64,000 nucleotides of DNA, from the sequence record MK817115.1; one strand, 5' to 3'. Positions 47,256 to 63,937 of this stretch are shown here, in pieces. Under the pieces are notes generated by a model. It ran no database searches. It saw only the letters and a program-made list of their open reading frames with translations, and had not been told where the DNA came from. The DNA comes from Escherichia phage vB_EcoM_phAPEC6. The position numbers and the translations under genes were made by a program. The number at the start of each line of letters is the position of its first letter. The stretch's first letter is position 1.

Positions 47256-47306
47256 GGTATAATCCCCAATATAAGCGGCCTAAATCGACCGCTAACGATG
47301 TTTTGA

Positions 47307-48540: not shown

Positions 48541-48775
48541 TGTTTTAATTCCTTTGATTTGGAAGGAGAACCGTTTCCCCCTCTCGATGTAAAACATTAT
48601 ACGCTAATCTCTTAATCGTGCAAGTACTTTTTATTACTTTTTGCAAAATACTTTAAACGCACTCAATCGCGTTCTTACAGCCTTAACGCCACCAGCTAGG
48701 GCAATGCATCAGATAATCAGTTTAATGCGTTAGAATCGATTCTAGGCGGTGCTGGTGGCCTGGTAAACGTTAAAC

Positions 48776-48803
48776 ACAAAAAAGCCCACTTATGCAGTGG
48801 GCT
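48776..48803 (-). terminator. intrinsic terminator
   Basis: hairpin AGCCCACT-tatgc-AGTGGGCT followed by T-run on minus (A-run on plus) after stop of 48825..49307. Confidence 0.5.
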
Positions 48804-48824
48804 AGTGATTCAGTACTTTAATTG

Positions 48825-49307: not shown

Positions 49308-49350
49308 TTTATAAATCCTCAATTAAAGTTTAGTTTACGTTGGTTAGTGT

Positions 49351-49421
49351 ATCAAAGTTTTCTCGACGTGTCCAGTTTTTCGTTCGACTTACTGGCGGTC
49401 TACTTAGTGCTCCCCGTCTTG
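49351..49421 (-). ncRNA. structured 5' leader element, diverged copy 3
   Basis: partial sequence similarity to leaders at 42508-42581 and 52314-52389; sits between promoter TTGACA-N16-TAGAAT and gene start. Confidence 0.25.
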
Positions 49422-49510
49422 ATGTAATATATTCTACGCCTTTTTGCGGTAATGTCAACTATTTTTTAAAACTATTTTCAAAGTATCTCAGTACTACGAT
49501 ACTACAAAAA

Positions 49511-49534
49511 CAAAAAAAGCCCACCAGGTGGGCT
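49511..49534 (-). terminator. intrinsic terminator
   Basis: perfect hairpin GCCCACC-a-GGTGGGC with T-run on minus side (A7 on plus) after stop of 49541..49771. Confidence 0.5.
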
Positions 49535-49540
49535 ATGTAC

Positions 49541-49771
49541 TTAATCAGTAATTAAAACATTAAACACTTTATCATTTAACGTTATGGGTGTACTGCTACC
49601 AGGCTTGAGATCAGTTAGTACACCTGCAATAGCTTTTTCATTGGCGACCTTTCCAGTGTCCAACAGTACTACAGTACTGATAAGATTAACGCTCGTTTCA
49701 ATATCATAATGCACGGCGTTAAGTAGTTGTGTAGTACTGCTTTCGTTAAGTAAAACAATTCGCTTAGTCAT
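49541..49771 (-). CDS. hypothetical protein (76 aa)
   Basis: ORF track. Confidence 0.6.
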   Translation of the reverse strand: MTKRIVLLNESSTTQLLNAVHYDIETSVNLISTVVLLDTGKVANEKAIAGVLTDLKPGSSTPITLNDKVFNVLITD

Positions 49772-49792
49772 GATGTTACCCCGTAGTATCTA

Positions 49793-50092
49793 TCAACGGC
49801 AATTAATAACGCCAGTATGAGTTACTTTCTCAGTATCCATAACAGTGACCGAACCGCGTTTAGTACTTGCATCGTAATAAATTGTCGTGCTACCGTTTTC
49901 GTCTTCTTCATGGAACGGGCCGTTTTTAAATGCTTCCGGCTGGATCTCTAAATCCTTTAAAACAATCTCGCCAGTACTTTCATCGGTCATTGCAACAGTG
50001 CACTGAATGAATTTTTCACTACTTACATCTAATGACGCATTAACAGCGAAAGAGGAAACAGATAAAGCCAGGGCGATGATTGCAATTTTCAT
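49793..50092 (-). CDS. small secreted/exported protein (N-terminal signal peptide)
   Basis: ORF track 99 aa; N-term MKIAIIALALSVSSFAVNA has signal-peptide features; SD AGGAT. Confidence 0.5.
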   Translation of the reverse strand: MKIAIIALALSVSSFAVNASLDVSSEKFIQCTVAMTDESTGEIVLKDLEIQPEAFKNGPFHEEDENGSTTIYYDASTKRGSVTVMDTEKVTHTGVINCR

Positions 50093-50112
50093 TTGATTAT
50101 CCTTAGTTACCA

Positions 50113-50173
50113 GGGGGAACCGCTCCCCCCTTGCGATGTAAAATATTATACAGTACTAAAAACTAATTGCAAG
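50113..50173 (-). promoter_or_regulatory. early-type promoter + 5' GC hairpin cassette (PeSL-like)
   Basis: TTGCAA-N16-TATAAT then hairpin GGGGGAA-ccg-CTCCCCC. Confidence 0.55.
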
Positions 50174-50177
50174 TACT

Positions 50178-50414
50178 TTATGATTTTTTATAAAACATTT
50201 CGGCAGTGATATTTTTACCCGTTGGTTGTACTTTATCCAGAATTTTTTGATGTCCAGGGCGACCAAATGAATAAGATCCGTAAACCGTAAACCAGTAGTT
50301 ACCCTCAGTGTTTACATGTACAGCACAATAGGGAACGCCCCGCGATTCATCACTAGTAAAGTGTGATACCGTACCCGTTACATTCGCAGACGTTGATTTG
50401 ATTTGTTCGACCAT
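50178..50414 (-). CDS. hypothetical protein (78 aa)
   Basis: ORF track; SD AGGAA. Confidence 0.6.
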   Translation of the reverse strand: MVEQIKSTSANVTGTVSHFTSDESRGVPYCAVHVNTEGNYWFTVYGSYSFGRPGHQKILDKVQPTGKNITAEMFYKKS

Positions 50415-50522
50415 TTTCTTATTCCTTAGTTACCAGGGGAACCGCTCCCCCTATGCAAAACATTATACGCGTTTAAAAACTAATAGCAAGTATTTTAATA
50501 AAAAGTATTTGGAAAATAATTG

Positions 50523-50551
50523 TTGACAAGTGCATCCAGTACTGGCATAAT
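50523..50551 (+). promoter_or_regulatory. plus-strand sigma70-like promoter (antisense orientation)
   Basis: TTGACA-N17-CATAAT on plus strand; no plus ORF downstream. Confidence 0.4.
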
Positions 50552-50621
50552 TACTACATCAAGACGAAACAGTCACTAACCCACCGGGTGCCGAGATCCG
50601 TCTATTAAATGATTCAGTACT

Positions 50622-50650
50622 AAAAAAAGAAAGGGGATCAATTGATCCCC
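50622..50650 (-). terminator. intrinsic terminator
   Basis: perfect palindrome GGGGATCAATTGATCCCC with T-run on minus side, directly after stop of 50657..50878. Confidence 0.55.
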
Positions 50651-50656
50651 TCGTTG

Positions 50657-50878
50657 TTATTTTGTAAGGTATAAACAGAAGTCACCTTTATTTGCTACGC
50701 CGCCAGTGTAACGCGAGGAATAGTTAGAAACGTCCTGGACTTCTGCTATTACCAGGGTATCATCATTCAATTCGTCGCAGAAGCAAACGGCTGGATCTTG
50801 TACGCCGATATTGTCGGCATGTTCCCGCATAGATTTAACCAGTGCTTCAAGTTGGGAAAGAGTAGTGATATTAGCCAT
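50657..50878 (-). CDS. hypothetical protein (~73 aa)
   Basis: ORF track 50657..50908; start moved to MANITTLS Met downstream of hairpin. Confidence 0.55.
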   Translation of the reverse strand: MANITTLSQLEALVKSMREHADNIGVQDPAVCFCDELNDDTLVIAEVQDVSNYSSRYTGGVANKGDFCLYLTK

Positions 50879-50961
50879 TTTATTTTCCTCATTACCAGGG
50901 AGAACCATTTCTCCCCTTGATGTAAACTATTATACAGTACTAAAAACTAATTGCAAGTACT

Positions 50962-51243
50962 TTAACTGTAAGATCCGCAACGGTCGCAGTAGTGCCCCTC
51001 GTCATCGTCAACGAATTGACCAACGAAATTATCTACTTTCGCTTTCAGGTTATTATAATCGTTTTCTACTTCATTTAAACGCTTCTGGTAGTATTCCAGT
51101 GCTTTAAGATATGCCGCATCAGCAGTTTTCTCCTGCATAGCTAAATTCATGCCACGCGTTTCATCGTACAGCCAAAAACCATCGGTGCACTGGCTAATAG
51201 ATAATGACTTGCTTAGTACTGTATAGTTAATTACTTTACTCAT
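50962..51243 (-). CDS. hypothetical protein (~93 aa), Cys-rich C-terminus
   Basis: ORF track 50962..51324; start moved to MSKVINYT Met downstream of hairpin GGCGGGAAccatTCCCCGCC. Confidence 0.55.
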   Translation of the reverse strand: MSKVINYTVLSKSLSISQCTDGFWLYDETRGMNLAMQEKTADAAYLKALEYYQKRLNEVENDYNNLKAKVDNFVGQFVDDDEGHYCDRCGSYS

Positions 51244-51301
51244 TAGATAAACCCTCAATAAAGGCGGGAACCATTCCCCGCCATTGTTACAGTACTGAAT
51301 A

Positions 51302-51541
51302 TTACATTCCAACCATTGCAGCACGGATCGCAGTAGTGCTATACTTAAAGCCGTCCGGCGTTGTAGTAGTACCGTTGGCTTTTAATCTGCGGTACATGCA
51401 TTCCGCTGCAATATCTTTAGTTCTACTTTGTGCGATACAACTTTGTGCAAGCCGATACAATGACTCACCGTTATTAATCCATAAGGAAACATTCCAATGA
51501 GTTTTGTTTTTGTGCCCGTTGTAAGTTTTAGTACTAGCCAT
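51302..51541 (-). CDS. hypothetical protein; paralog of 53339..53578
   Basis: ORF track 79 aa; shared HKNKTHWNVSLWINN..LYRLAQ..PDGFKYSTTAIRAAMVGM. Confidence 0.65.
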   Translation of the reverse strand: MASTKTYNGHKNKTHWNVSLWINNGESLYRLAQSCIAQSRTKDIAAECMYRRLKANGTTTTPDGFKYSTTAIRAAMVGM

Positions 51542-51633
51542 TTTTTTTAATCCTCGTTTGAGCGGGGAACCACTCCCCGCCTCGATATAAAGTATTATAC
51601 GCTTTTAAACTTAGTTTGCAAGTACTTTTTAAA

Positions 51634-52245
51634 TTAATATTCGATTGATTCTACTACGCCATCAATAACATTGAATTGATATTCGTTACCCTCAATCAGT
51701 GCTGTAATGTTTTCAGTAGTGAATTGATCCTCATATGCATTCTCTAAATCACGGTACAACTTGCGGGATAATTCACGAATAGTTTCAGTGAGTAGTTCCT
51801 CAAGCTCATTAACTAACGTTTCTTGTTTTGCGGTTAAATCAGTGTAAGCCGATTCAATGTACCCGCTTACAGTGTTTTCATGCGAGTAGTGGGAGTGAGA
51901 ACGCTTTACACTCATCGCCAAATCATCTTCATTCAGCAGGTGACGGATTGAGCGATACTTAGTTAATGCTCTTACCTTGCGTAAAAACTTCACTGCGTCA
52001 ACGTGGTCAGTACTGATTGATGCACCGTCACCCTGGGACCAAAAACCACTGAATTGTATTTCAGCGTCATTAATGCCATATTCCGGCAATACTGTTTCTT
52101 TATAGTGTTCAATTTCACTTTCAGAAAAATAATCGTCGTTTGAGTTTTTTTCACGTTCCCGAACCAGTTCGATAGCTGACGTTTTTTGTTCTGCGTTCAA
52201 TTCAGAAAAATCCATAACATAAGTAGTAGTAGTGATAGTTTTCAT
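51634..52245 (-). CDS. acidic hypothetical protein (203 aa)
   Basis: ORF track; SD AGGGT; preceded by tandem promoters and structured leader copy 2. Confidence 0.6.
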   Translation of the reverse strand: MKTITTTTYVMDFSELNAEQKTSAIELVREREKNSNDDYFSESEIEHYKETVLPEYGINDAEIQFSGFWSQGDGASISTDHVDAVKFLRKVRALTKYRSIRHLLNEDDLAMSVKRSHSHYSHENTVSGYIESAYTDLTAKQETLVNELEELLTETIRELSRKLYRDLENAYEDQFTTENITALIEGNEYQFNVIDGVVESIEY

Positions 52246-52313
52246 TTTGTAACCCTCATTCAGTAGTTTATGTAAGTATTATACGCTTTTAAAAACAATT
52301 GTCAAACTATTTT

Positions 52314-52389
52314 ATCAGGGGAGTTTTTCGTGTGCCTTACTCCTGGGCTACTTAACGGGAAGTTACTTATTTCGTTCCCCGTCCTGATG
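52314..52389 (-). ncRNA. conserved structured 5' leader element, copy 2
   Basis: near-identical to 42508-42581 with some differences falling in predicted stems; flanked by promoters TTGCAA..TATAAT and TTGACA-N16-TATAAT. Confidence 0.35.
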
Positions 52390-52467
52390 TAAAACATTAT
52401 ACGCCTTTAAACATAGTTTGCAAGTACTTTTTAAAAATAGTTTTCAGTACTGAATAGTAAAAAGGTA

Positions 52468-52496
52468 TTGACAGCACTATCCAGTACTGGTATAAT
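52468..52496 (+). promoter_or_regulatory. plus-strand consensus sigma70 promoter (antisense orientation)
   Basis: perfect TTGACA-N17-TATAAT on plus strand; no plus ORF follows. Confidence 0.45.
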
Positions 52497-52670
52497 ATAC
52501 CCCATGACAACAGCTAACCCACCGGGTGCACAATTGTAACTGTACTAAACTACTTTTTCTATAGATACACTCCCGCACCCTATGGGCTACGGCTTATCTG
52601 CCAATGAATACATTATGCCAGTACTGACAAAATAAGTCAATACCGGCAATTGTAAAGATTTGTAAACTAC

Positions 52671-52901
52671 TTATACTGCAATCGCGTCCAGGCTATAATA
52701 ATAATAAGTGCCGTATTGGTGTACTTTATTACCTTTTATTTCAGTACTGAATGAATCCGAACGATTGGCATATGATGTTAATTTATAGTACTTTACTTTA
52801 CTAATACGTTGCCATACACCGCAGATCCGCTGTAAGTAAGTAGTTTTATTTGTGGTAGTATCTTTTACGGCTTTCAATTCGATCATATACATAGTGGTCA
52901 T
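52671..52901 (-). CDS. hypothetical protein (76 aa)
   Basis: ORF track; SD AGGAG. Confidence 0.6.
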   Translation of the reverse strand: MTTMYMIELKAVKDTTTNKTTYLQRICGVWQRISKVKYYKLTSYANRSDSFSTEIKGNKVHQYGTYYYYSLDAIAV

Positions 52902-52986
52902 TTTATTACTCCTTGCTTTAGTGGGGAACTATTCCCCACCTGATATAAAGTATTATACGCGTTTAAACTTAGTTTGCAAGTACTTT

Positions 52987-53253
52987 TTATTCAAGTACTG
53001 CGATCTTTTTAATACGGTACACGGTCACGCGGTTGCCCTTTCGGTCGAGCTTTATTTCTACCACTCGACGCGATACACTATCAGGACTTTTCAACGCCGC
53101 TAACCAGTACTGTAATGATCTGGCGGTACTACGCTTTACAATGGCCCAACGTTTACCACGTTCCGATTGTACGCCCATATCTTTAAACGTTGCCCCGTCC
53201 TGGCGTGCGGCGATCCGAGCTTGTTCACGCGTCGCAAAATACTTAATATTCAT
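52987..53253 (-). CDS. hypothetical protein; paralog of 40970..41365
   Basis: ORF track 52987..53289; start moved to MNIKYFATREQAR Met behind SD AAGGG. Confidence 0.6.
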   Translation of the reverse strand: MNIKYFATREQARIAARQDGATFKDMGVQSERGKRWAIVKRSTARSLQYWLAALKSPDSVSRRVVEIKLDRKGNRVTVYRIKKIAVLE

Positions 53254-53338
53254 GCTGTTGCCCTTATCGTTGGTGTATGAATAAAACACTATTATAAAGT
53301 ACTATCGCAAAAAATGATAGTACTTTAAATAAATTCTA

Positions 53339-53578
53339 TTACATTCCAACCATTGCAGCACGGATCGCAGTAGTGCTATATTTGAATCCGTCCGGTGTTT
53401 TATCTTGTCCAGTCTGTTCTAAAAATAACATCATATGACGGGCCGCATCATTACGATTAGTATTGGCGGCAATAAAGTCCTGGGCCAACCGGTATAATGA
53501 TTCATCGTTATTAATCCAAAGGCTTACATTCCAATGAGTTTTGTTTTTGTGACCTAAGAACATTTTTGATTTAGCCAT
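53339..53578 (-). CDS. hypothetical protein; paralog of 51302..51541
   Basis: ORF track 53339..53617; start moved to MAKSKMFLGHKNKTHW Met by paralog alignment and SD GAGGAT. Confidence 0.6.
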   Translation of the reverse strand: MAKSKMFLGHKNKTHWNVSLWINNDESLYRLAQDFIAANTNRNDAARHMMLFLEQTGQDKTPDGFKYSTTAIRAAMVGM

Positions 53579-53671
53579 TTTTTTAATCCTCTTATATAGT
53601 GGGGAACTATTCCCCACCTGATGTAAAACATTATACGCTTTTAAACATAGTTTGCAAGTACTTTATTAAAC

Positions 53672-54034
53672 TTATTCGTAAATTTTGCCACTGTCAGCCC
53701 ATACCAGGAAACGAGGCATATTATCCCATGCATCTTGTTTTAAATTTAAACCGTGTAATACTTCTGTACTTTCCATTCCTGGTACTGGTTTACTATACAC
53801 CGCAAATAGTTCACCCATATACTGATAAGCCATCGTTAAATCACTGGCGATCATCTTATGGATCATCGCATCAAGCATCACGGTAGCGGCGTATTGTTCA
53901 CGCTTAAGCGGTAACATTGCAATAAGTTCCCGATAAGCTGAAATGTGAATTTTTACCGTTTCAGCCGGAAGACCTTTCATCTCTTCACGGAAGTTAACCA
54001 GGTTAGCAATAATTTTATTGATTTGAGTCGCCAT
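53672..54034 (-). CDS. hypothetical protein (~120 aa)
   Basis: ORF track 53672..54091; start moved to MATQINKI Met downstream of hairpin AGCGGGAAgtgtTCCCGCT. Confidence 0.55.
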   Translation of the reverse strand: MATQINKIIANLVNFREEMKGLPAETVKIHISAYRELIAMLPLKREQYAATVMLDAMIHKMIASDLTMAYQYMGELFAVYSKPVPGMESTEVLHGLNLKQDAWDNMPRFLVWADSGKIYE

Positions 54035-54148
54035 CGTTTTCATCTCTCTTACAGTGTAGCGGGAAGTGTTCCCGCTCTCGATGTAAAACATTATACGCTT
54101 TTAAACATAGTTTGCAAGTACTTTCTACATGTACTTTTAAAATAGTTT

Positions 54149-54640: not shown

Positions 54641-54860
54641 AGTTCCATCAAGTCGAGAAAGACTCAAGCCCACCGGGTGCATAGTTACGCCCAAAATTCA
54701 GTACTAGATTATTTTTTAAAAATATTCATCCAGGCGGTTGACATTGCCCCCAGTTTATAAGATAATGATTCCAGATTCAGAAAAATCTAACTCCAGATAC
54801 TGCGGGGAAACTATCCCCACGCGGTAGGGGAACTATTGGAAAAAACAAAATAAAATTTTG

Positions 54861-55000
54861 ATTTAGCCGTCTATACTTCCAGACGTGTAACCATCTAGCC
54901 GTTTAGCCGTCCAAACGTCTAGCCATCCAGCCCTCCAGAAATCTAGCCGTTTAGCCGTCTAGATGGATAGCCATCTTTACTTCCAGACTTCTGGAGGGCT
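54861..55000. repeat. iteron-like cluster of short direct repeats with flanking inverted repeat
   Basis: TAGCCGT occurs at least five times and TAGCCAT twice within ~110 bp; inverted repeat GCCCTCCAGAA ... TTCTGGAGGGC; direct repeat ACTTCCAGAC x2. Confidence 0.6.
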
Positions 55001-55860
55001 AGACATATCTACGTCCAAAATCCACCCAGGGTAACTACGCCCAAAATCCGTCAGTACTATACCATAGATCTATCTTTTGAAAGGGAGTATTCAGTACTGC
55101 CATCATAGCCCTCACTATGTTACCCTAGGAGGATGAAGACTATCATGTAGTACTGAATACTGTTAGAGGGAATCCACCAGCACAAGCTGGTGGCATAATG
55201 CTTTAGATTAAAATCAGTACTGACACCATTCTGTTAATATCAGTACTGTTATTACGATTTTCATATGAGGTTCAAAAAGATGTACCACCACAGGAGGAAC
55301 TATCTTTTCTGTACTGTCTCACGACAGGAGGTAGAGTAAATGAATTGTTCGCAGCAACTCATCACCCTATGTAGAACATTATACAGTACTGAATCATAAT
55401 GTCAATAGCTTTCTTTCATTATTCAGTACTGATATTCTTGAGAACTACCCGACTACAAACATCATTATATCCCACAAATCATAAACGTCCCAACGTAAAT
55501 TTCAACTTTCGAAGATCCAACTTTTATTTCATAGGTACTCCAAAATTTTTAGGATCGAGATTTAGGATGGAGTACTAACCAACTTTTTGCTGGAGCCTCA
55601 AGGGGTAATGGAATTTTACCCCGAAGGGTAAAGGGGTAATTGAAATTAAGGTGAAAGTAATAATTCAGTACTAATCATTGCGTGATTACTTTTGATTACA
55701 TTTGATGTAATTTGAAAAATGGAAAAGGAGCTTGGAAACTACAAAGTACGGCAGACTTCCTCTGCCTACTTAGTGGCATATCAGTACTGAATCCTTCCCG
55801 TGCATTCTTGAGCATTCTTGTCTATACTAATCAGTACTGAATCATATATAATCATTCTGT

Positions 55861-55920
55861 GATTCTACGGTGCTCATATAAATGTTTATATATGATTACT
55901 TATGACTACCTATGATTACG
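55861..55920. repeat. tandem TGATTAC-type short repeats
   Basis: tatgattac / tatgactac / tatgattac in tandem; further gattac copies near 55680-55720. Confidence 0.5.
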
Positions 55921-56033
55921 GGGTTTAGCCTGGGGAGAATCCTAGTGATCGCATTTGTCCAGGCTGAATTTTAACAATTCGCCTGTACATAAAGGTTGTT
56001 CACTAGGAGCTTCCCCTGTCTCTATGTGTTTAA

Positions 56034-56225
56034 TTACTTTCTATATATAAGCATTAAGATATAGTAGTACTGATTATACTGTACATTCTCTTTAATATTA
56101 TAAGGGTCTATAGCAATCTCGGTACATCTGTTAAATGCATATCTATTAAATGCCAGTGGAATTATAGATCTAATCCATACTTGTTCATTTTCTTTTAGTT
56201 TACTTATATAGAAGTTTTTATACAT
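56034..56225 (-). CDS. family C paralog (small protein, N-term M.KEFY, C-term LIxRY)
   Basis: ORF track 63 aa; MYKNFYISKL...ILMLIYRK. Confidence 0.6.
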   Translation of the reverse strand: MYKNFYISKLKENEQVWIRSIIPLAFNRYAFNRCTEIAIDPYNIKENVQYNQYYYILMLIYRK

Positions 56226-56240
56226 AGTATTCTCTATTAA

Positions 56241-56423
56241 TTAATATGATAGTACTAGTGTTAGTACTGAGCACAATTGTTCTTTATAGTTCTTAGGGTA
56301 TATAGAATCTTTTATGCACTCATTGAAGTGCCATAGGTATAATCTTGGGTCGCATTCTTTATATATTCTTACGGGGACGAATGTTAGTTTTCTTATATAG
56401 AATTCTTTATGTTCTTTATTCAT
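56241..56423 (-). CDS. family C paralog
   Basis: ORF track 60 aa; MNKEHKEFYIRKL... Confidence 0.6.
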   Translation of the reverse strand: MNKEHKEFYIRKLTFVPVRIYKECDPRLYLWHFNECIKDSIYPKNYKEQLCSVLTLVLSY

Positions 56424-56424
56424 A

Positions 56425-56613
56425 TTAGTACCTGAATATAAGTAGGATTATGTTATAGTACTGGTTAGTACTGCAATGATTCTCTATACATCGATTAACA
56501 GTTATGGAATAGCTATATCTGGCGTAAGCATTATCCAGCGGGATTTTACATTGAGCACTTAGAGAAAGTACAGTAGGTAGTGTATTCAAATAGAAGTCTT
56601 TGTAATTATTCAT
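56425..56613 (-). CDS. family C paralog
   Basis: ORF track 62 aa; MNNYKDFYLNTL...IILLIFRY. Confidence 0.6.
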   Translation of the reverse strand: MNNYKDFYLNTLPTVLSLSAQCKIPLDNAYARYSYSITVNRCIENHCSTNQYYNIILLIFRY

Positions 56614-56815
56614 ACAGGAATAGTATACCTATGATACCTGAGTACAGGTTAGTACTGTTACCATCTTCGTTTGCGTTTAAAGTCATTTGAATACAATTAT
56701 TGTAGCATACTCTGCCGAAAAATGTATTAGTACTTAAAGGTGGAGTAGTCCTTAGAAACATTTGTTCTGAGGGGCTTATGTATTTGGAGTAGAATTCTTT
56801 ATGTTCTTTATTCAT
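56606..56815 (-). CDS. family C paralog
   Basis: ORF track 69 aa; MNKEHKEFYSKYIS...GILFLYE. Confidence 0.6.
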   Translation of the reverse strand: MNKEHKEFYSKYISPSEQMFLRTTPPLSTNTFFGRVCYNNCIQMTLNANEDGNSTNLYSGIIGILFLYE

Positions 56816-56820
56816 ATTAG

Positions 56821-57006
56821 TTAGTGTCTGTATATAAGTAATAGTAAGAATACGTACTGCACATCTTCATCTTTAGTATTGAGTACTGTACGTATTGCGT
56901 CATTAAACAAGAATATAGTACTTGGGTCATGAGAATTTAAAGGGGTTCTGGGTACGGCATGTTTGTAGTTCCCTTTAACAAATTGTGTGTAGTATTCTCT
57001 ATGCAT
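56821..57006 (-). CDS. family C paralog
   Basis: ORF track 61 aa; MHREYYTQFV...LLLLIYRH. Confidence 0.6.
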   Translation of the reverse strand: MHREYYTQFVKGNYKHAVPRTPLNSHDPSTIFLFNDAIRTVLNTKDEDVQYVFLLLLIYRH

Positions 57007-57007
57007 A

Positions 57008-57193
57008 TTAGTACCTATATATTAGGGCGATAATGTAGTACAATTCATATGGAATGTAATTTGGGGTGATCGCACACTGTGTATGGTAAATGAATTGTTC
57101 GGTATTTTTCTTATCCTTGATATCTATTGGGATTAGTGGTATAAGCATTTGGGAGTTTAGATCGAGATGGCTTAAGTAGAATTCTTTATGCAT
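57008..57193 (-). CDS. family C paralog
   Basis: ORF track 61 aa; MHKEFYLSHL...IIALIYRY. Confidence 0.6.
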   Translation of the reverse strand: MHKEFYLSHLDLNSQMLIPLIPIDIKDKKNTEQFIYHTQCAITPNYIPYELYYIIALIYRY

Positions 57194-57202
57194 ATTGTTC
57201 TT

Positions 57203-57391
57203 TTAGAATACGAAAGCTAGGTACAGGGTATGATACAGTACTCGATGATAGCTGTCAAAATCTAGTATACATGCTTTAGTGCACATAGTAAAGTACACTT
57301 TATCGTTTTGTGCATTGATACCGCGAGGTTTATCTAATAGATTAGTACTGAGGTACATTGGGAAATATTTTGTGTAGTATTCTTTATGCAT
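57203..57391 (-). CDS. family C paralog
   Basis: ORF track 57203..57436; start moved to MHKEYYTKYF Met by paralog alignment. Confidence 0.55.
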   Translation of the reverse strand: MHKEYYTKYFPMYLSTNLLDKPRGINAQNDKVYFTMCTKACILDFDSYHRVLYHTLYLAFVF

Positions 57392-57392
57392 A

Positions 57393-57575
57393 TTAGTACC
57401 TGAATATAAGTAGGATAGTGTTATATAGCTGGTCATAACTACTACTATTTTCTATACTTCGTTCTATGCAGTTATTGAATCCCAGTACTGCCAAATCGTT
57501 ATCCATAGGGACTTTGTATCTGGCGTAGTGTTCAAAAATGCTGGGGAGAAATTGTGTGTAGTATTCTTTGTGCAT
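57393..57575 (-). CDS. family C paralog
   Basis: ORF track 60 aa; MHKEYYTQFL...ILLIFRY. Confidence 0.6.
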   Translation of the reverse strand: MHKEYYTQFLPSIFEHYARYKVPMDNDLAVLGFNNCIERSIENSSSYDQLYNTILLIFRY

Positions 57576-57576
57576 A

Positions 57577-57762
57577 TTAGTACCTATATATTAGTAAAAG
57601 GATGTGATACAGTACTCGATTATAGTCTTCAATATATATCGAGGATTTAGTGCACTGAATGAAGTAGTCTTTTTCGTAGTTTTTTTCTATACCCAATGGT
57701 TCTGTTGGTACAAGGTGTTGGAGATACATTGGGAGTTTCTCTATGTAGTATTCTTTATACAT
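57577..57762 (-). CDS. family C paralog
   Basis: ORF track 61 aa; MYKEYYIEKL...LLLIYRY. Confidence 0.6.
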   Translation of the reverse strand: MYKEYYIEKLPMYLQHLVPTEPLGIEKNYEKDYFIQCTKSSIYIEDYNRVLYHILLLIYRY

Positions 57763-57771
57763 ATATTATCC

Positions 57772-57972
57772 TTAGTACTGGAACGCAAGGTACAGGGTGT
57801 GGTAAAGTTGTACTTGATAATTGTTTTCATTAGCTTCTTCATTAAGTACTTGTTCAGTACATGTACGGAAGTAATCAGCTTCATATATACAGTCAATACC
57901 GCGAGGTTCATCTTCTAATAGATTTCCTTGTAGAAACTTTGGTAGTTCTTTTATGTAGAATTCTTTATACAT
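57772..57972 (-). CDS. family C paralog
   Basis: ORF track 57772..58035; start moved to MYKEFYIKEL Met by paralog alignment. Confidence 0.55.
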   Translation of the reverse strand: MYKEFYIKELPKFLQGNLLEDEPRGIDCIYEADYFRTCTEQVLNEEANENNYQVQLYHTLYLAFQY

Positions 57973-58636
57973 AGTTTGTAATATACGTAATGAGGTGATG
58001 CATTTTCTTATCAGTACTGATAATTTCCTGTACATGTTTTGTCAGATTGTACGCGTTTTTATAGAGTACTGGATTATCGATTACAGTACTGTACATGAAT
58101 AGTTCTTCTTCCTGTAGTTCTTTGTGTTCTAGTTCTTTGAGGAATTCTACAATTGATTTAGTTTCTTCTGTACGTTGTGCTTGCCAGAAGTGCATATTCT
58201 CGTGTACTTTTTTTGCACCTATACTGTATATACCACCCATTTGGAATTGTGCTGTATTGACATCGTGGGAGGTGTTACAATTCCCGAAGAAGTATGTATT
58301 CCCGAAGTATAGCATTAAAGTGCACGGGGTATTATCCAACTGCATATGGATGATGAAGGATGCGTTCTTTAGTACCTTTGTGCTCGTATTAGTACTCAAT
58401 ACTTTTAAATCAGTATTATAGATATTCATATAATGAACAGCTATATTATTTTTCTTCATGTACAATCCCAGGTTCTTTGATACGTTAACTCCATTTGTAC
58501 TGGATTTTTCCTTTTTATTTCGTTTCTTTAGTACATTCGGGTGATACGTATATGCAGATGTAACTGATTCTGCCTGAATACTATTGAGGTACTTAAAGTG
58601 CTTAAGGTATTGTTTGCTGTGTGCATTAAGTTTCAT
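57965..58636 (-). CDS. hypothetical protein (223 aa) with family A-like motif, embedded in family C array
   Basis: ORF track; motif QEEELFMYSTVIDNP; SD AGGAAA. Confidence 0.6.
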   Translation of the reverse strand: MKLNAHSKQYLKHFKYLNSIQAESVTSAYTYHPNVLKKRNKKEKSSTNGVNVSKNLGLYMKKNNIAVHYMNIYNTDLKVLSTNTSTKVLKNASFIIHMQLDNTPCTLMLYFGNTYFFGNCNTSHDVNTAQFQMGGIYSIGAKKVHENMHFWQAQRTEETKSIVEFLKELEHKELQEEELFMYSTVIDNPVLYKNAYNLTKHVQEIISTDKKMHHLITYITNYV

Positions 58637-58646
58637 TTGGTTTCCT

Positions 58647-58826
58647 TTATATAGATGCCAGGGCGAGGATTTCCCTGTAGGGATTATCTTGTGTTAGTAC
58701 AGCATAAATGCAGTTATTGAGATTAATATTTTTAGTACTTTTTGTTCCTAGTTTGTAGTACTTCACGAAGGTGTCGTACATGAAACGGTCTTTTATGGTT
58801 ATACGTTCTCTATAGAATTGTTGCAT
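58647..58826 (-). CDS. family C-like paralog (59 aa)
   Basis: own reading: MQQFYRERITIKDRFMYD...ILALASI; just below track cutoff. Confidence 0.4.
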   Translation of the reverse strand: MQQFYRERITIKDRFMYDTFVKYYKLGTKSTKNINLNNCIYAVLTQDNPYREILALASI

Positions 58827-58834
58827 AGTATTCC

Positions 58835-59017
58835 TTAAATAGCGATTAGTTTCATTACTTCTCTGTATGTGTACTTTTCGTTTTGTGCATCTCTTGTGAC
58901 GACATATAGGAAGGTGTGTTTATCTTTTTTGTTCCCGCAATTGTAGAAAATATTGAACTTATTGAAGTTGAATCTTTCGGCGTGTTGTAGTTTAGTTAAA
59001 TAGAATTCTATGTTCAT
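58835..59017 (-). CDS. family C paralog
   Basis: ORF track 60 aa; MNIEFYLTKL...VMKLIAI. Confidence 0.55.
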   Translation of the reverse strand: MNIEFYLTKLQHAERFNFNKFNIFYNCGNKKDKHTFLYVVTRDAQNEKYTYREVMKLIAI

Positions 59018-59025
59018 TTTCTTCC

Positions 59026-59211
59026 TTACATTTCAATAAGTTTCAGTACTGCTCGGTACGTGTACTTAGTTGTCAGTGCTTCTTTAATAGAAATACAGAA
59101 GTAATGTTGTTTGTCTCTTATACTGCCGCGTTTGTAGTACCACACATGGGAGTTGTGACTGTACTTGTCTCTGTCGGATAGTTGTTGGTAGTAGTAGCTT
59201 ATATGATTCAT
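59026..59211 (-). CDS. family C paralog
   Basis: ORF track 61 aa; MNHISYYYQQL...VLKLIEM. Confidence 0.55.
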   Translation of the reverse strand: MNHISYYYQQLSDRDKYSHNSHVWYYKRGSIRDKQHYFCISIKEALTTKYTYRAVLKLIEM

Positions 59212-59420
59212 TATAATGTAATTAGCCTTACTATATTAAAGTACTCGGTCCCTGGTGTACCTTGTAGTATATTACGCACGACATTTTTTTGGTGCTGGAT
59301 GATTGCTGAAGGTGCGGTTCTTTTTAGTTTTTTTAAAGTACTGAATTCTTGTTTAAGTATGAACTGTACATCTTTAGGGAGAATATCTATGTAGTACTGA
59401 TGAATGTTTGTAGTTTTCAT
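59211..59420 (-). CDS. family C paralog
   Basis: ORF track 69 aa; ...QYYIDILPKD...IVRLITL. Confidence 0.55.
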   Translation of the reverse strand: MKTTNIHQYYIDILPKDVQFILKQEFSTLKKLKRTAPSAIIQHQKNVVRNILQGTPGTEYFNIVRLITL

Positions 59421-59430
59421 ATAGCACCTT

Positions 59431-59625
59431 TTAGAACTTAAAGATGAGGTTCAGGATAGAGCGGTACTTAGTTTCAGGGAACTGATGTTCTATTGCATAA
59501 CGTGTCGCCATCCTGAAATCGTAATTGTAATATAGATTATCCTTTCTCATAGGTGGTGCTAAAGAGAATGATAGCTGGTCTTGCTTGTGTAGTTTACTAC
59601 CATAGAAATCTTTATGATTATTCAT
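59431..59625 (-). CDS. family C paralog
   Basis: ORF track 64 aa; MNNHKDFYGSKL...ILNLIFKF. Confidence 0.6.
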   Translation of the reverse strand: MNNHKDFYGSKLHKQDQLSFSLAPPMRKDNLYYNYDFRMATRYAIEHQFPETKYRSILNLIFKF

Positions 59626-59827
59626 AGAAGTAGATTAGTCCTATTAAACCTGAGTACATAATATTTTTGTTATTGCATTCGATTGCTTCTAGAGTACTAC
59701 GTATACAATTATTAAAGCAATCTCTACCGAAGTGAGTATTGGTACTTACAGGTGATACACTCCTTAGAAACAATTGTTCTTCGTTGCTAAGGTATTTGGT
59801 GTAGAATTCTTTATGTTCAGTATTCAT
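59618..59827 (-). CDS. family C paralog
   Basis: ORF track 69 aa; MNTEHKEFYTKYLS...LIGLIYFYE. Confidence 0.6.
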   Translation of the reverse strand: MNTEHKEFYTKYLSNEEQLFLRSVSPVSTNTHFGRDCFNNCIRSTLEAIECNNKNIMYSGLIGLIYFYE

Positions 59828-59828
59828 A

Positions 59829-60032
59829 TTAGTACTCGATTAAAAGGGCAAGGATATAATAGTATTGCATACTTTCTGCCCCTTGTAAAGCATTTCTTAT
59901 GATATTATTCCTGTACGAGTTCAGGAGTTTAGGACAACGTTTGTAGTGTATAATAGTATTTTGTGTATACAGTAGGCTTTCTCGTAGACCTTTTGTTGGT
60001 AGTGCATCGATGTAGTACTGTTCGATATTCAT
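59829..60032 (-). CDS. family C paralog
   Basis: ORF track 67 aa; MNIEQYYIDAL...ILALLIEY. Confidence 0.55.
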   Translation of the reverse strand: MNIEQYYIDALPTKGLRESLLYTQNTIIHYKRCPKLLNSYRNNIIRNALQGAESMQYYYILALLIEY

Positions 60033-60256
60033 ATAGATAGCAGTACTAAGATTTTTGATAATTGTTTATTGCTATCCCCGCAGATGTTGCTGTGTAAAAT
60101 ACTCACAATGAGGGTATCAATTGCATTGTTCATCATAAGGGTGCATCCTGGACTATTATAATTTTTTAGCTCAATTAGCCACGAACTATCCGAGAGAAAC
60201 TCCCCGTACTCTAGTTCATTTAGAGTATTGAGGTAGTACTTAAGAGTATTTGTCAT
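60029..60256 (-). CDS. family C paralog (first gene of array)
   Basis: ORF track 75 aa; MTNTLKYYLNTL...; SD AAGGAG. Confidence 0.55.
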   Translation of the reverse strand: MTNTLKYYLNTLNELEYGEFLSDSSWLIELKNYNSPGCTLMMNNAIDTLIVSILHSNICGDSNKQLSKILVLLSI

Positions 60257-60281
60257 GTGTAGTTCTCCTTATATTCCTTCT

Positions 60282-60310
60282 ATAGTACAACAGTACTGAA
60301 AGGATGTCAA
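60282..60310 (-). promoter_or_regulatory. sigma70-like promoter for family C array (divergent region)
   Basis: minus-strand TTGACA-N17-TACTAT about 25 nt upstream of 60256 start. Confidence 0.45.
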
Positions 60311-60358
60311 GGGTTTTCTTTATGGGGTAAATATGATATAATGAATAAGGAGGGATTT

Positions 60359-61507
60359 ATGTTACCTTTTGCAAGAATGATTAAGTACGGGAATATTGCC
60401 CCTGGTGATGATGGACGTTTTAAAATATATTCCAGTGATTCCATGTATCTTCATGATACTTATACTGATAAGTTGTATGCATCTTCTGCGACGAATTGGG
60501 GTACTGGTACAGGTGTAGCATCGAGTAAATTTATTCTTTGTGCGGAGAATGTTAAACGAGTTCTATTGGAAGATAACAGTAGTGATTGTCAATTGTACGA
60601 AGAGAAAGGTACGGGAAAAGTTTTTATCACTGGCAACACGAAGGCATTCACTGGTGTAACTGATAGAAAAACTTTGTGGACGGACTGTACTACATGGATA
60701 ACATCAGGTGGTATTAATGTTTCTGATATAAAATACATGAGTAGTTTTTATGATATGAAGGTGAATTTGATAACAAACGATGGTACATTGTATTGTTGTG
60801 GAGCTAACAATATATCGAACATATCATCATTTGGTGATGGCACAAACATTAATTCTTTTAACACATTCAAAAGAGTAGATACTATAACTTCGGTTAAAAA
60901 GGCAGTTGGTAACATTTATTTGCGAGAAGATAATACTTTATGGGGTTGTGGTTTTAACTATTACTACCAGTTGGGTACGGGTAATCAAACTTCTATTACT
61001 GGGGTGACGATGATTTCTTCGGATGTTATAGATTTTAATGTAAGTTATCAGAGTACATTTTTTATCAAATCGGATAATAATTTGTACGCTTGTGGTAAAC
61101 AGTTCGGTGCACAATATGGGAACGAATTTGGTACAGGTGGTACTTCTACATCTACAGATATACAATATAAAACTCCGACATTATTGAGTTCAGGAGTTTA
61201 TACTCTATATACTTGTGTTGGTAACATGGCATCACATATTGTCAAAGCAGATGAAGTTCTATATGCTTCTGGAACGAATGGGTTTGGGCAATTAGGTGTT
61301 GGTAATAATAATAATCAGTACTCCTATACTCCTTCTTATACTTCTTTTAATAGTTCGTGTGATTTGGTACGCAGTCCATCTGGATCACTTATACTTACGG
61401 ATACTGGAAAATTATATTATTGTGGCATTGCAATAGTAGTAATGGGTGGTATTTCTGGACAGAACGTTCTTAATTATACAGAAGTAGATATGTCATTTAT
61501 ACAATGA
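60359..61507 (+). CDS. RCC1-like repeat (beta-propeller) protein, paralog 1
   Basis: ORF track 60341..61507, start set to MLPFARMIKYGN Met behind SD AAGGAGGG; repeats with G.N..GQLG.G signature (WGCGFNYYYQLGTGN, GTNGFGQLGVGN). Confidence 0.6.
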   Translation: MLPFARMIKYGNIAPGDDGRFKIYSSDSMYLHDTYTDKLYASSATNWGTGTGVASSKFILCAENVKRVLLEDNSSDCQLYEEKGTGKVFITGNTKAFTGVTDRKTLWTDCTTWITSGGINVSDIKYMSSFYDMKVNLITNDGTLYCCGANNISNISSFGDGTNINSFNTFKRVDTITSVKKAVGNIYLREDNTLWGCGFNYYYQLGTGNQTSITGVTMISSDVIDFNVSYQSTFFIKSDNNLYACGKQFGAQYGNEFGTGGTSTSTDIQYKTPTLLSSGVYTLYTCVGNMASHIVKADEVLYASGTNGFGQLGVGNNNNQYSYTPSYTSFNSSCDLVRSPSGSLILTDTGKLYYCGIAIVVMGGISGQNVLNYTEVDMSFIQ

Positions 61508-61515
61508 ATTAATAT

Positions 61516-61545
61516 GCCAGTACTTGATACTGGCTTTTCTTTTTG
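61516..61545 (+). terminator. intrinsic terminator
   Basis: hairpin GCCAGTA-cttga-TACTGGC followed by TTTTCTTTTTGT. Confidence 0.6.
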
Positions 61546-61579
61546 TATTAAATATAGTATAATGAATAAAGGAGGAATT

Positions 61580-62722
61580 ATGTTACCTTTTGCAAGAATG
61601 GTTAAGTACGGGAATATTGCACCTGCACAAATCGGTAGATATAAAATATACAGTTCATCTTCTTCACTATTTTTATTGGATACCCAAAAACACAATTTGT
61701 ACAGTACATCGAACATTAATTATACTAGTGGTACAGGTAATGTTGAGCCTAAATTTGTGTTAAGTGCAACTAATGTTAAAAGATTATTACTATCTGATAA
61801 TAGTTGTGCAATGCAAATATATGAAGATATGAATGGGCGTGCAGCGATGTGTGGCACAAGAACTGCATATAGTGGGGTTGCAAATGATAATGTACTGGTA
61901 TGGACGGATTGCACTACATGGTTCACAAATGTAGGGTTGAATGTATCAGATATTCAGTACATGTCTGGTTTTTATAATCTGAAACTAAACATAGTTATGA
62001 ATAATGGTGATTTGTGGTGTAGTGGGAAAAACAACACTACTACTATGTCATCATTTGGTAATAGCACAAATATCGATTCATTCAATCAGTTTACCAAAAT
62101 AACAACAATATCAAATGTTATTAAAGCCACCGGGAATATATACTTATGTGCAGATAATACTTTATGGGGATGTGGTTTTAACTCTTACTATCAGTTAGGG
62201 ACAGGTAATCAAACATCCAGTATTAATTTGATTATGATGGCTTCTAATGTTATCGACTGTAATGTTGGTCTTCAAAATACTTATTACTTGACTAATAATA
62301 AAGAACTTTATGGATGTGGTACACAATTTGGTACAACTTACGGGAATGAATTTGGAACAGGAAGGCAGGGAACATCAATACAATATAAGACTCCTACTAT
62401 AATTTTCACAAATGCAGATGGTCTGGCTGTTTGTGTCGGTAATATGTCTACTCATGTTATTCAATATGATAAAGTTTTTAGTTCTGGTAATAATGCCCTT
62501 GCACAGTTGGGTGTAGGCAACCGTGACAATGTGTACACATATACACAATCATTTGATAATTTCAAAATGGATTCTTCTATAGTACGTGCAAACGTTGGAA
62601 CATTGATAATGACAGCGGACAATAAGTTATATTACAGTGGGAGAAATGATGTTGTTATGGGTGGAACAAGCACACAATACACGACGGTTTTCAGTGAAGT
62701 TAATATGTCATTTATACAATGA
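61580..62722 (+). CDS. RCC1-like repeat (beta-propeller) protein, paralog 2
   Basis: ORF track 61514..62722, start set to MLPFARMVKYGN behind SD AAAGGAGG; motifs WGCGFNSYYQLGTGN, NALAQLGVGN. Confidence 0.6.
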   Translation: MLPFARMVKYGNIAPAQIGRYKIYSSSSSLFLLDTQKHNLYSTSNINYTSGTGNVEPKFVLSATNVKRLLLSDNSCAMQIYEDMNGRAAMCGTRTAYSGVANDNVLVWTDCTTWFTNVGLNVSDIQYMSGFYNLKLNIVMNNGDLWCSGKNNTTTMSSFGNSTNIDSFNQFTKITTISNVIKATGNIYLCADNTLWGCGFNSYYQLGTGNQTSSINLIMMASNVIDCNVGLQNTYYLTNNKELYGCGTQFGTTYGNEFGTGRQGTSIQYKTPTIIFTNADGLAVCVGNMSTHVIQYDKVFSSGNNALAQLGVGNRDNVYTYTQSFDNFKMDSSIVRANVGTLIMTADNKLYYSGRNDVVMGGTSTQYTTVFSEVNMSFIQ

Positions 62723-62728
62723 ATTAAT

Positions 62729-62758
62729 GCCAGTACTTGATACTGGCTTTTCTTTTTT
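62729..62758 (+). terminator. intrinsic terminator
   Basis: same hairpin GCCAGTA-cttga-TACTGGC + T-run. Confidence 0.6.
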
Positions 62759-62794
62759 GTATTAAATATAGTATAATGAATAAAGGAGGGAATT

Positions 62795-63937
62795 ATGTTA
62801 CCTTTTGCAAGAATGGTTAAGTACGGAAATGAAGCACCAGAACCAAAACCTCTATTTAAAAATAGATTACAAGCAAATTATAATACTCGTTTTTATTTGC
62901 ATGTTAATGGTGACTTGTACTGGTATGGTTCATCTTCATTTGGACAAGGTGGTAATGGTTCATTACAATCATCCACCGTATGGACCCGTGTGAATAATAA
63001 TATTGAACGTTACTGGGGTGGTGTTCTTGGTTCCATTGCCATTAAGAATGATGGAACTATTTGGTTCACAGGTGCTAGTATAGTAATGCCACAAATCGGA
63101 ACAAATACAAATGGGGTTTGGATTGATGTAACCCAGTACTTCACTGATTTTGGTGTCAGTGCTGATGATATTGATGGTATTGCTGTTGGACAGAATTTGC
63201 GTGTATTTTTGAAAAATGGAAAATGGTTCTACTGTGGTGCTGGCGAGGGTGGTGTATTTGGTAACGCATCAACAGCTAATGTCACATCGTTCAGATACAG
63301 CACTATAGAAAATGTTAAAAGTTATGGCTGTTCTTTGCTCAGTACTGGGTTAGTTCTTGATGATGGTTCCTATTGGTATGCAGGAAATACTGTTGCTCCT
63401 GGTAGTACAACAACATCAAATATATTAAGTTTTACAAAAGACAATACGATCACCAATGCTATACAAGCTGTAAATACATACCGTACTTCATATATATTTC
63501 TTAATGATGGTTCAGTGAAGGTTGCTTCACCAAATGCATATGGTCAAGCTGGTGTAGGTAGAGTATCAGCAGTACCAATGAGTACATTAATTCCCAATTT
63601 ATCATTCCAAGGTGAAATAGAGTTGGTGGGTGGTTTATCCAACAACGAAGGGAATGGATGTGTTGTTAAAAATAATAATAAGTTATATACTTGTGGTCGA
63701 AATACCTATGGTGCATGTGGTGTTAATCAAACATCCGAAAATATACTAACTTTCACCGAAATGGTTCTTGATGCATTAGAAGGAAGACGAATTTCAGGCT
63801 TCGTAATTGATAATTTCTATTCAATGATAATTGATGAAAATAACAATTTGTATATGAGTGGTTTGGCTGAACTTGGAAATGTTCCAGCCGTGAGAGTTCC
63901 AACCAGAGTCCCCGATTCCCTTCTACCGTGGAAATAA
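62795..63937 (+). CDS. RCC1-like repeat (beta-propeller) protein, paralog 3 (more divergent)
   Basis: ORF track 380 aa; N-term MLPFARMVKYGN; motifs SSFGQGGNG, NAYGQAGVGR, NTYGACGVN. Confidence 0.6.
   Translation: MLPFARMVKYGNEAPEPKPLFKNRLQANYNTRFYLHVNGDLYWYGSSSFGQGGNGSLQSSTVWTRVNNNIERYWGGVLGSIAIKNDGTIWFTGASIVMPQIGTNTNGVWIDVTQYFTDFGVSADDIDGIAVGQNLRVFLKNGKWFYCGAGEGGVFGNASTANVTSFRYSTIENVKSYGCSLLSTGLVLDDGSYWYAGNTVAPGSTTTSNILSFTKDNTITNAIQAVNTYRTSYIFLNDGSVKVASPNAYGQAGVGRVSAVPMSTLIPNLSFQGEIELVGGLSNNEGNGCVVKNNNKLYTCGRNTYGACGVNQTSENILTFTEMVLDALEGRRISGFVIDNFYSMIIDENNNLYMSGLAELGNVPAVRVPTRVPDSLLPWK

Follow-up and report, generated by a model that had tools for sequence, protein, structure and literature searches.

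Why should a phage keep a long row of short, diverged genes head to tail in what looks like a single operon, and what might their products do? The question is raised by a 64,000-nucleotide stretch of Escherichia phage vB_EcoM_phAPEC6 (sequence record MK817115.1), hereafter called the window. This phage belongs to Asteriusvirus, the 121Q/PBECO4/G17 group of jumbo coliphages with genomes of ~350 kb. Positions 56034..60256 of the minus strand carry 18 head-to-tail genes of 59-75 aa, the family C array, and one gene of 223 aa (BIG). The small genes are numbered C01-C18 along the direction of transcription (Table 1). Re-analysis of the open reading frames (ORFs) confirmed the coordinates, the strand and the count of small genes given in an initial annotation of the window, as well as the larger gene embedded among them. 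The spacers, described there as 0-10 nt, in fact range from an 8-nt overlap to a 15-nt gap (-8 to +15 nt). Internal ATGs were used as starts in C09 (57972) and C12 (57391), which restores the family N-terminus. ORFs of at least 55 aa span 98.4% of the minus strand of the array, compared with a mean of 2.7% and a maximum of 14.8% in 500 first-order Markov simulations. The array is therefore real and far past chance.

All 18 small genes share a pattern made of an N-terminal [FY]Y-x3-L, a central F-x2-C-[IT]-x3-[IL] and a C-terminal Y-x2-[IL]-L-x-L-I-x2-Y. Beyond this, they do not form a uniform set. A core of 12 genes (C03, C04 and C09-C18) is defined by matches to PHROG 11711, a phage protein family annotated as of unknown function (best E = 6.9e-28), and by pairwise links. 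The M.KEFY and LIxRY end motifs, first ascribed to the whole array, are present in these twelve genes and missing from the other six. C01, C02, C05 and C06-C08 gave no direct match to PHROG 11711; in pairwise comparisons, they fall into a second group of C06-C08, a third of C02 and C05, and C01 by itself. Profile comparisons were made with hhalign after enlarging each group with orthologs from seven phage genomes. They link C06-C08 to the core over their full length (probability 93.2%, P = 3e-7, 55 columns) and likewise C02/C05 (probability 91.7%, P = 7.7e-7, 58 columns), whereas reversed-sequence controls gave P ~0.013. For C01, P was 0.06 against the core and 0.0016 against C02/C05. These comparisons indicate 17 demonstrable family members in the array, 12 core and 5 remote. 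Hence, the idea of a single family C holds insofar as the paralogous family is real and conserved, but the family is best described as a 12-gene core with two remote subgroups and one unassigned gene, C01. Identity between paralogs is 25-35%. No profile-level relation was found between family C and the two other tandem families of the window, A and B.

The family is confined to the Asteriusvirus-type lineage and old within it. A word-indexed search of 5.8 billion proteins returned 27 relatives, and an exhaustive hidden Markov model search of 1.84 billion cluster representatives returned 31 clusters at E <= 0.001. The relatives found in both searches are all 41-77 aa long. Every match with a named source comes from an Asteriusvirus-type phage and the remainder are metagenome sequences, the most divergent matches being those from phage JNE01, phage A4 and metagenome contigs. 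Neither the small proteins nor BIG gave anything significant in Pfam, NCBIfam and PDB sequence searches; the one NCBIfam match, to SseB (18 bits for a cut-off of 155), was rejected as noise. Family C is not described in any paper found, those on Asteriusvirus included. Several homologs of family C and BIG are labelled 'Escherichia coli' at NCBI (P0007, P0085, P0086, P0092, P0093) and lie on contigs of 34-359 kb, those of P0085, P0086 and P0093 being 354-359 kb long. Such contigs therefore represent Asteriusvirus genomes present in bacterial assemblies. Recent papers report lytic phages in bacterial genomes.

Among phage records, 33 match positions 56000-60400, the best of them with 97.6% identity over 96% of the query for CRJP21 and 98.7% over 86% for G17 and Sharanji. 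The counterpart of the array in 121Q is genes 249-265, all annotated 'hypothetical protein'. Annotation in GenBank is uneven: only 4 of the 18 array genes are called in CRJP21, as opposed to nearly all in 121Q and JP4 (CMSTMSU and BF17 were also compared). As had been anticipated, the ORFs are conserved: they are intact and syntenic in every relative examined (seven genomes and one metagenome contig), including JNE01, where amino acid identity is ~40%. JNE01 and the 69.7-kb metagenome contig also share a general layout. Genes of the RCC1-like type occupy one strand, the small-gene array with its BIG homolog occupies the other, and a ~2-kb ORF-free stretch and then more small genes follow.

Substitution patterns show that the small genes are protein-coding and under purifying but relaxed selection. 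The pooled ratio of non-synonymous to synonymous substitution rates (dN/dS) of orthologs is 0.29-0.44 against six relatives, compared with 0.16-0.17 for true orthologs of the RCC1-like neighbour. Along the small proteins, pN/pS is 0.28 over the first 12 codons, 0.53 in the middle and 0.20 over the last 12, so that change is fastest in mid-protein. It could be argued that the ORFs are untranslated and that the array works at the DNA or RNA level. Indeed, junctions and first codons are conserved at the nucleotide level (T[TA]C in 12/12 genes, AAA in 11/11) and there is a high density of AGTACT-type motifs (30 in 4.2 kb). However, the synonymous excess among substitutions, the 98% ORF coverage, the Shine-Dalgarno (SD) sequence or coupled start found at each junction and the confident fold prediction obtained from covarying sequences make this scarcely credible.

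Expression signals point to a common unit. The array is separated from the RCC1-like genes by a divergent intergenic region of 100 nt, ~92% identical overall across seven phages and retained in JNE01 although the coding regions there have diverged so far. A promoter had been placed at 60.26-60.34 kb, and a near-invariant sigma-70-type TTGACA-17-TACTAT element does lie there, followed by an SD sequence ahead of C01 (Table 1). Within the array, each junction falls into one of three types: an overlap of stop and start (ATGAATAA or TAATG), AGG-TAC-TAA-T-ATG, or an ATG preceded at 8-10 nt by a TAAGGA-type SD sequence. Thus C06, C07 and C08 are each preceded by a TAAGGA-type SD sequence or an overlapping stop/start. 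Codon choice at the gene ends is also peculiar. The stop is TAA in 19/19 array genes, compared with 55% of background ORFs. Arginine is encoded by AGG in 4/4 'RY-stop' ends, giving AGGTACTAAtATG, although AGG makes up 10% of Arg codons here; an SD-like AGG thereby lies 7 nt ahead of the following ATG. All 12/12 core genes have TTC or TAC as fourth codon of the N-terminal motif (background C-ending ~42%), and its Lys is AAA in 11/11. The conserved termini are therefore also, in part, a nucleotide-level signal, most simply one for coupled translation.

In view of one conserved promoter with its SD sequence, of coupled starts and of the short spacers, the array can be regarded as one polycistronic, translationally coupled operon. 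No internal promoter could fit into spacers of at most 15 nt. Host sigma-70 RNA polymerase would transcribe the operon early and toward the terminal repeat. This timing is inferred from the sigma-70-type promoter, from its divergence from virion genes and from analogy with two other phages. The RpoD-like promoters of the related phage CBB are concentrated where short hypothetical ORFs lie, a region taken as early; in PA5oct, genes of the direct terminal repeat (DTR) are early and the phage depends on the RNA polymerase of its host.

The number of small genes varies between close relatives, with 18 in the window, 16 in 121Q, 17 in CRJP21, 19 in SP27, 21 in JP4 and 22 in BF17. Polymorphisms were read against flanks at least 97% identical. 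The conserved junction, in which ...L-I-Y-R-Y-TAA of one gene is followed by ATG-CAT-AAA-GAA-TWC-TAY of the next, gives rise to families of direct repeats of 46-69 nt. Two such repeats, spaced by 392 nt, flank the C15 and C16 unit (Table 1). This 392-nt unit is missing from 121Q, G17 and SP27, and the alignment blocks overlap by ~51 nt in these subjects, a signature of unequal homologous recombination between the N-terminal/junction sequences of C15 and C17. C05 is mostly deleted in 121Q, SP27, JP4 and CRJP21, with an alignment break between window positions 59267 and 59426. In 121Q, a 52-nt gap lies between genes 253 and 252 (121Q 5994-6045), at the C05 deletion site; it may hold a 3' remnant of C05, which would represent recent partial gene loss inside the operon. 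The C09 slot is occupied by different genes in different phages. A 245-nt repeat with 74% identity (59589-59833 vs 56577-56821) joins C03-C04 to C15-C16 and points to an old two-gene segmental duplication.

The junctions are thus the substrates on which unequal homologous recombination acts, with gain or loss of units. Adjacent paralogs, copy-number polymorphism and an indel bounded by inter-paralog repeats were all found, as expected of birth-and-death evolution. Since one-to-one orthologs survive in JNE01 (C02 54%, C08 61%, C14 59% and C10 43% identity) among copies that were otherwise replaced, birth-and-death rather than concerted evolution is indicated for family C. Such turnover would also suit near-neutral filler, that is, tandem copies that inflated the genome after capsid enlargement and were then tolerated, as in the capsid-size ratchet of Hua et al. 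These authors tie the growth of jumbo genomes partly to tandem duplication and report an array of >30 genes in 121Q; moreover, constraint on family C is relaxed (0.3-0.5 vs 0.16 in the RCC1 neighbour). We nevertheless find filler unlikely: dN/dS is clearly below 1, the ORFs have stayed intact and syntenic in JNE01 at ~40% identity, the termini are strongly constrained, the promoter region is better conserved than the genes and coupling signals have been kept at each junction.

The embedded BIG gene is unrelated to the small family. It matches PHROG 29152 (annotated as of unknown function) and has no Pfam, NCBIfam or PDB relative. An AlphaFold2 (AF2) model built from a 16-sequence alignment was unusable, with a predicted local distance difference test (pLDDT) score of 39. 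BIG homologs occupy the syntenic position in JNE01 (40% identity) and in the metagenome contig (222 aa). All relatives keep the gene at this position, and its rate of evolution matches that of the small genes (dN/dS 0.43-0.58). BIG was at first credited with a family A motif. The local resemblance is real: 18 aa of BIG, at residues 174-191 (LQEEELFMYSTVIDNPVL), are similar to lsEEelFQeSlvydeevl, the consensus of family A. It falls short of significance, however (E = 1.7), and a homology between BIG and family A was therefore set aside as unproven. The resemblance may be in part a DNA-level coincidence, because the Y-S-T-V codons spell a palindrome, CAGTACTG, that is present in excess all over the window.

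The conserved N-terminal 'leader' of many short genes, placed around one larger gene that is always embedded, might recall precursors of ribosomally synthesized and post-translationally modified peptides (RiPPs), with BIG as maturation or immunity factor. This is very improbable, as folded helical domains are predicted for the products, which are conserved at both ends and variable in the middle. In addition, comparison of BIG and its neighbours with Pfam, NCBIfam, PHROGs and PDB revealed no domain of a modifying enzyme, protease or transporter.

Alignment and structure prediction had been proposed as checks on the family. The AF2 model of C10, obtained from a 24-sequence alignment, is a confident small helical bundle (pLDDT 91.9, predicted template modelling score 0.73). 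Helices are predicted at residues 2-9, 12-17, 28-43 and 47-60, and the loop 18-27 holds an invariant proline. A Foldseek search of BFVD with the family C model retrieved same-family members only. The proteins are rich in tyrosine (10.6% vs 6.6% in the background) and their isoelectric points (pI) range from 4.4 to 10.0. The grand average of hydropathy (GRAVY) is negative in 17/18 of them, C01 being the exception. No membrane-spanning stretch was found in the 18 small proteins, the longest hydrophobic run being ~12 residues. Small membrane proteins, such as holins or superinfection-exclusion proteins, were accordingly discarded as candidates, with a hydrophobic span too short and GRAVY negative in 17/18. 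The model describes a family C product as a small, soluble, tyrosine-rich helical bundle that matches no known fold, and family C is thus an orphan in both sequence and fold.

The predicted C-terminal helix (e.g. VLYHILLLIYRY) is hydrophobic on almost all faces and would be hard to bury in a 60-aa monomer. Paralogs might thus assemble into homo- or hetero-oligomers through the conserved hydrophobic helices at their two ends, acting as one complex rather than as separate effectors. Coupled translation along the operon, which would fix stoichiometry, and the fact that the termini are the most constrained parts agree with this. However, AF2 predicts the monomer confidently without partners, and copy number and composition vary freely in close relatives, a poor fit to fixed stoichiometry. 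We regard such an assembly as rather unlikely.

The conserved N-terminal decapeptide followed by a variable remainder also brings to mind virion-packaged, injected internal proteins, as encoded by the T4-type locus, in which the conserved N-terminus would be a capsid-targeting sequence. The family N-terminus is, we presume, similar to the T4 capsid-targeting MKTYQEFIAE, a likeness to be taken as a lead only. Furthermore, this polymorphic locus adjoins genes of virion proteins (RCC1-like). In the T4 internal-protein locus, which encodes polymorphic small proteins, the conserved N-terminal decapeptide goes with a protease site, presence in the virion and late expression. Family C likewise has a conserved decapeptide, but differs in the cleavage site and the presence in the virion: no conserved (L/I)-x-E site follows the HKEFY segment, which forms helix 1 of the predicted fold, and family C is absent from the 62 virion proteins of phAPEC6 although a 4.7-kDa protein was detected, mass spectrometry having limited sensitivity at 7 kDa. 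The C-terminus is conserved too, and the promoter is of the sigma-70 type and divergent from the virion genes. Packaging into the virion is therefore improbable.

We lean slightly towards a composite reading, in which family C encodes early, dispensable, host-directed accessory proteins with diversified binding on a constant scaffold. The conserved termini, together with the central F..C[IT]...[IL] helix, would build the hydrophobic scaffold, and the variable loop and surface charge (pI 4.4-10) would give each paralog its own binding specificity. The products would be individually dispensable and directed at the host, for takeover or counter-defence, and changes in copy number would tune the repertoire of paralogs. 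Some observations weigh against this reading. As noted, dN/dS is below 1 everywhere, so that there is no direct arms-race signature. The promoter scan was overall at chance (29 sites vs 34 expected), and the promoter call consequently rests on conservation and position. No transcriptome, proteomic or phenotypic record of family C was found in the Asteriusvirus literature. Finally, the strongly hydrophobic C-terminal helix could signal self-association instead.

Beyond the composite reading, a mini-binder repertoire may tentatively be envisaged, although we consider it doubtful. In such a repertoire, a three- to four-helix scaffold with hypervariable loop and charge would allow each paralog to neutralise a different host factor or defence protein. 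The junctions would act both as coupling signals and as a recombination 'accordion' by which the population quickly expands, shrinks or reshuffles the repertoire. If true, this would be a bacterial-virus counterpart of the multigene families of poxviruses and African swine fever virus (ASFV).

Table 1. Genes and putative signals of the family C operon and its downstream region (window coordinates)
Feature	Position	Strand	Remarks
-35 element TTGACA	60310..60305	-	invariant in seven phages incl. JNE01
Sigma-70-type promoter (putative), TTGACA-17-TACTAT	60282..60310	-	sequence and conservation
Palindrome CAGTACTG in promoter spacer	60298..60291	-	
-10 element TACTAT	60287..60282	-	nearly invariant in seven phages incl. 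JNE01
Shine-Dalgarno AAGGAG	60265..60270	-	8 nt upstream of C01 start; invariant in relatives' alignment
C01	60029..60256	-	75 aa, first gene of the operon; kept in relatives
C02	59829..60032	-	67 aa; remote subgroup with C05
C03	59618..59827	-	core family, PHROG 11711
C04	59431..59625	-	core family, PHROG 11711
C05	59211..59420	-	69 aa; remote subgroup with C02
C06	59026..59211	-	remote subgroup, C-terminal YTYR.VLKLI
C07	58835..59017	-	remote subgroup, C-terminal YTYR.VLKLI
C08	58647..58826	-	remote subgroup, C-terminal YTYR.VLKLI
BIG	57965..58636	-	223 aa; stop region overlaps C09 start by 8 nt
C09	57772..57972	-	core family
C10	57577..57762	-	core family
C11	57393..57575	-	core family
C12	57203..57391	-	core family
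C13	57008..57193	-	core family
C14	56821..57006	-	core family
C15	56606..56815	-	core family
C16	56425..56613	-	core family
C17	56241..56423	-	core family
C18	56034..56225	-	core family
Junction direct repeats	56398-56463 + 56790-56855	-	spacing 392 nt, flank C15+C16 unit
Structured 3' region downstream of operon	55735..56033	-	RNA fold z-score -4.27
Terminator-like hairpin GGCAGAGGAAGTCTGCC	55766..55750	-	coincides with inferred outer DTR boundary ~55765

The array lies close to a physical end of the genome. An exact repeat of 20,668 bp stands at both ends of the G17 record and maps to window positions ~35,695..~55,765; the authors of that record deduced terminal redundancies of ~20 kb from sequence coverage (PMC6563267). 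A physical end of the genome therefore falls within the window, and the repeat separates families B and A from family C. The end of the array, at 56,034, is ~270 nt outside the terminal repeat, and the operon reads toward it. Between 54,100 and 56,030 there are 1.9 kb without ORFs, with several promoter-like sites and GC-rich hairpins; searches for tRNAs and Rfam families were negative, both over the window and over this ORF-free stretch (54.1-56.0 kb). Short tandem 'ggctagac/ggctaaacggctagat' repeats occur at ~54,860-55,010. In related jumbo-phage records starting at the physical end, the first 40-1400 nt find matches in parts of 54.1-56.0 kb. The opening few hundred bases of other Rak2-like jumbo-phage records, annotated there as terminal repeats, are matched by segments at ~54,820-54,980, as are the ends of some Vibrio, Aeromonas and phiKT-like phages that are not related. 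The stretch may be a terminus- or packaging-associated element, or may encode small RNAs.

On the other flank, three tandem RCC1-like paralogs of 388, 402 and 380 aa, with Pfam RCC1 matches, occupy 60,341-63,937 of the plus strand. The first of them probably starts at the second ATG (~60,359), behind AAGGAGG. These neighbours are annotated 'DNA condensation' in 121Q; in phAPEC6, RCC1-like homologs are virion proteins and eleven such genes are present.

Family A (1-29,400, minus strand) comprises 56 ORFs of at least 100 aa, 27 of which are linked by BLAST into one paralog cluster. Its motif is EE.FQ.S.V, whose codons often spell CAGTACTG, and no Pfam match was found in the three members tested. 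Family A may be the '>30-gene array' described by Hua et al. in 121Q. Family B (29,398-35,627, minus strand) consists of 28 consecutive genes of 66-104 aa with the motif LGTNYQE and ends exactly at the start of the terminal repeat.

The palindrome CAGTACTG itself occurs 58 times in the window (e.g. 60291-60298, 55384-55391, 58084-58091) for ~0.6-0.8 copies expected; AGTACT occurs 270 times (22 expected) and GTAC 640 times (204 expected). Within genes, the 8-mer takes any of the three codon phases; it is present in non-coding DNA as well, and is densest in the ORF-free 54.1-56.0 kb. It sits in the spacer of several sigma-70-like promoters and is not conserved at the array promoter of JNE01. It looks like a DNA-level signal; a literature search on this 8-mer returned nothing relevant.

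From 36,000 to 54,130, unrelated small genes each stand behind a near-identical promoter cassette, AAGTACTTGCAAACTATGTTTAAARGCGTATAATG, which is followed by a stem-loop. Five copies of the cassette are within 3 mismatches (e.g. 54089-54123, 53629-53663, 52395-52429) and more are degenerate. Such an arrangement recalls the hyperplastic regions of T4-type phages with their promoter-early-stem-loop (PeSL) cassettes, reportedly described by Arbiol et al. in 2010. Like the array, PeSL regions are clusters of small, fast-turnover ORFs shuffled by recombination at short conserved sequences; PeSL ORFs are early, as those of the array would be. However, every PeSL ORF has a promoter and a stem-loop to itself and is unrelated to the others, whereas the array has one promoter, its genes are paralogs and it is the coding junction that recombines. 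The array was rejected as a set of PeSL-type cassettes, with spacers of -8 to +15 nt and no copy of the 35-nt promoter cassette of 36-54 kb. From the arrangement of these signals, the PeSL model fits the 36-54 kb region of the window and not the family C array.

How does family C compare with other systems? In ASFV (multigene families (MGF) 100, 110, 360 and 505) and in the gene accordions of poxviruses, terminal arrays of paralogs undergo recombination between repeats and contain individually dispensable accessory genes for host interaction. Like family C, they are tandem paralogs near termini whose copy number varies between isolates by repeat recombination. There is, however, no homology, and family C differs in consisting of 60-aa proteins encoded by one coupled operon of a bacterial virus, with a putative host role. 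Genes 37-60 of SPO1 and the pre-early terminal-repeat genes of T5 are dense blocks of small genes with strong host-type promoters, expressed first and directed at the host. The array resembles them in its density of small genes, its host-type promoter and its position at or next to a long terminal repeat, but the genes of these modules are mostly unrelated, several having known targets, whereas array genes are paralogs. By analogy, the ASFV/poxvirus terminal multigene families and the SPO1/T5 host-takeover modules would be the closest functional counterparts. Tandem duplicated arrays have already been reported in the jumbo phages 121Q and G (Hua et al., 2017; PMC5646251) and noted for phAPEC6 (PMC7247149). 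Family C shares with them the genus and the process, with head-to-tail paralogs and products without known function, but it is separate, shorter and much more diverged. The general phenomenon of tandem gene expansion in jumbo phages is thus already known.

Three tandem paralog arrays, unrelated to one another, take up tens of kilobases in Asteriusviruses. Because it combines a selected, lineage-restricted family with operon signals and a recombination mechanism, the family C array offers a tractable test case for the use that jumbo phages make of gene-family expansion. The uneven annotation of the array, of whose 19 genes some records call only 4, distorts gene counts and pan-genome statistics for the genus. 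As Asteriusviruses have been proposed for therapy, knowing the plastic parts of their genomes has practical value. If family C is host-directed, it would supply ~30 divergent small binders built on a common scaffold.

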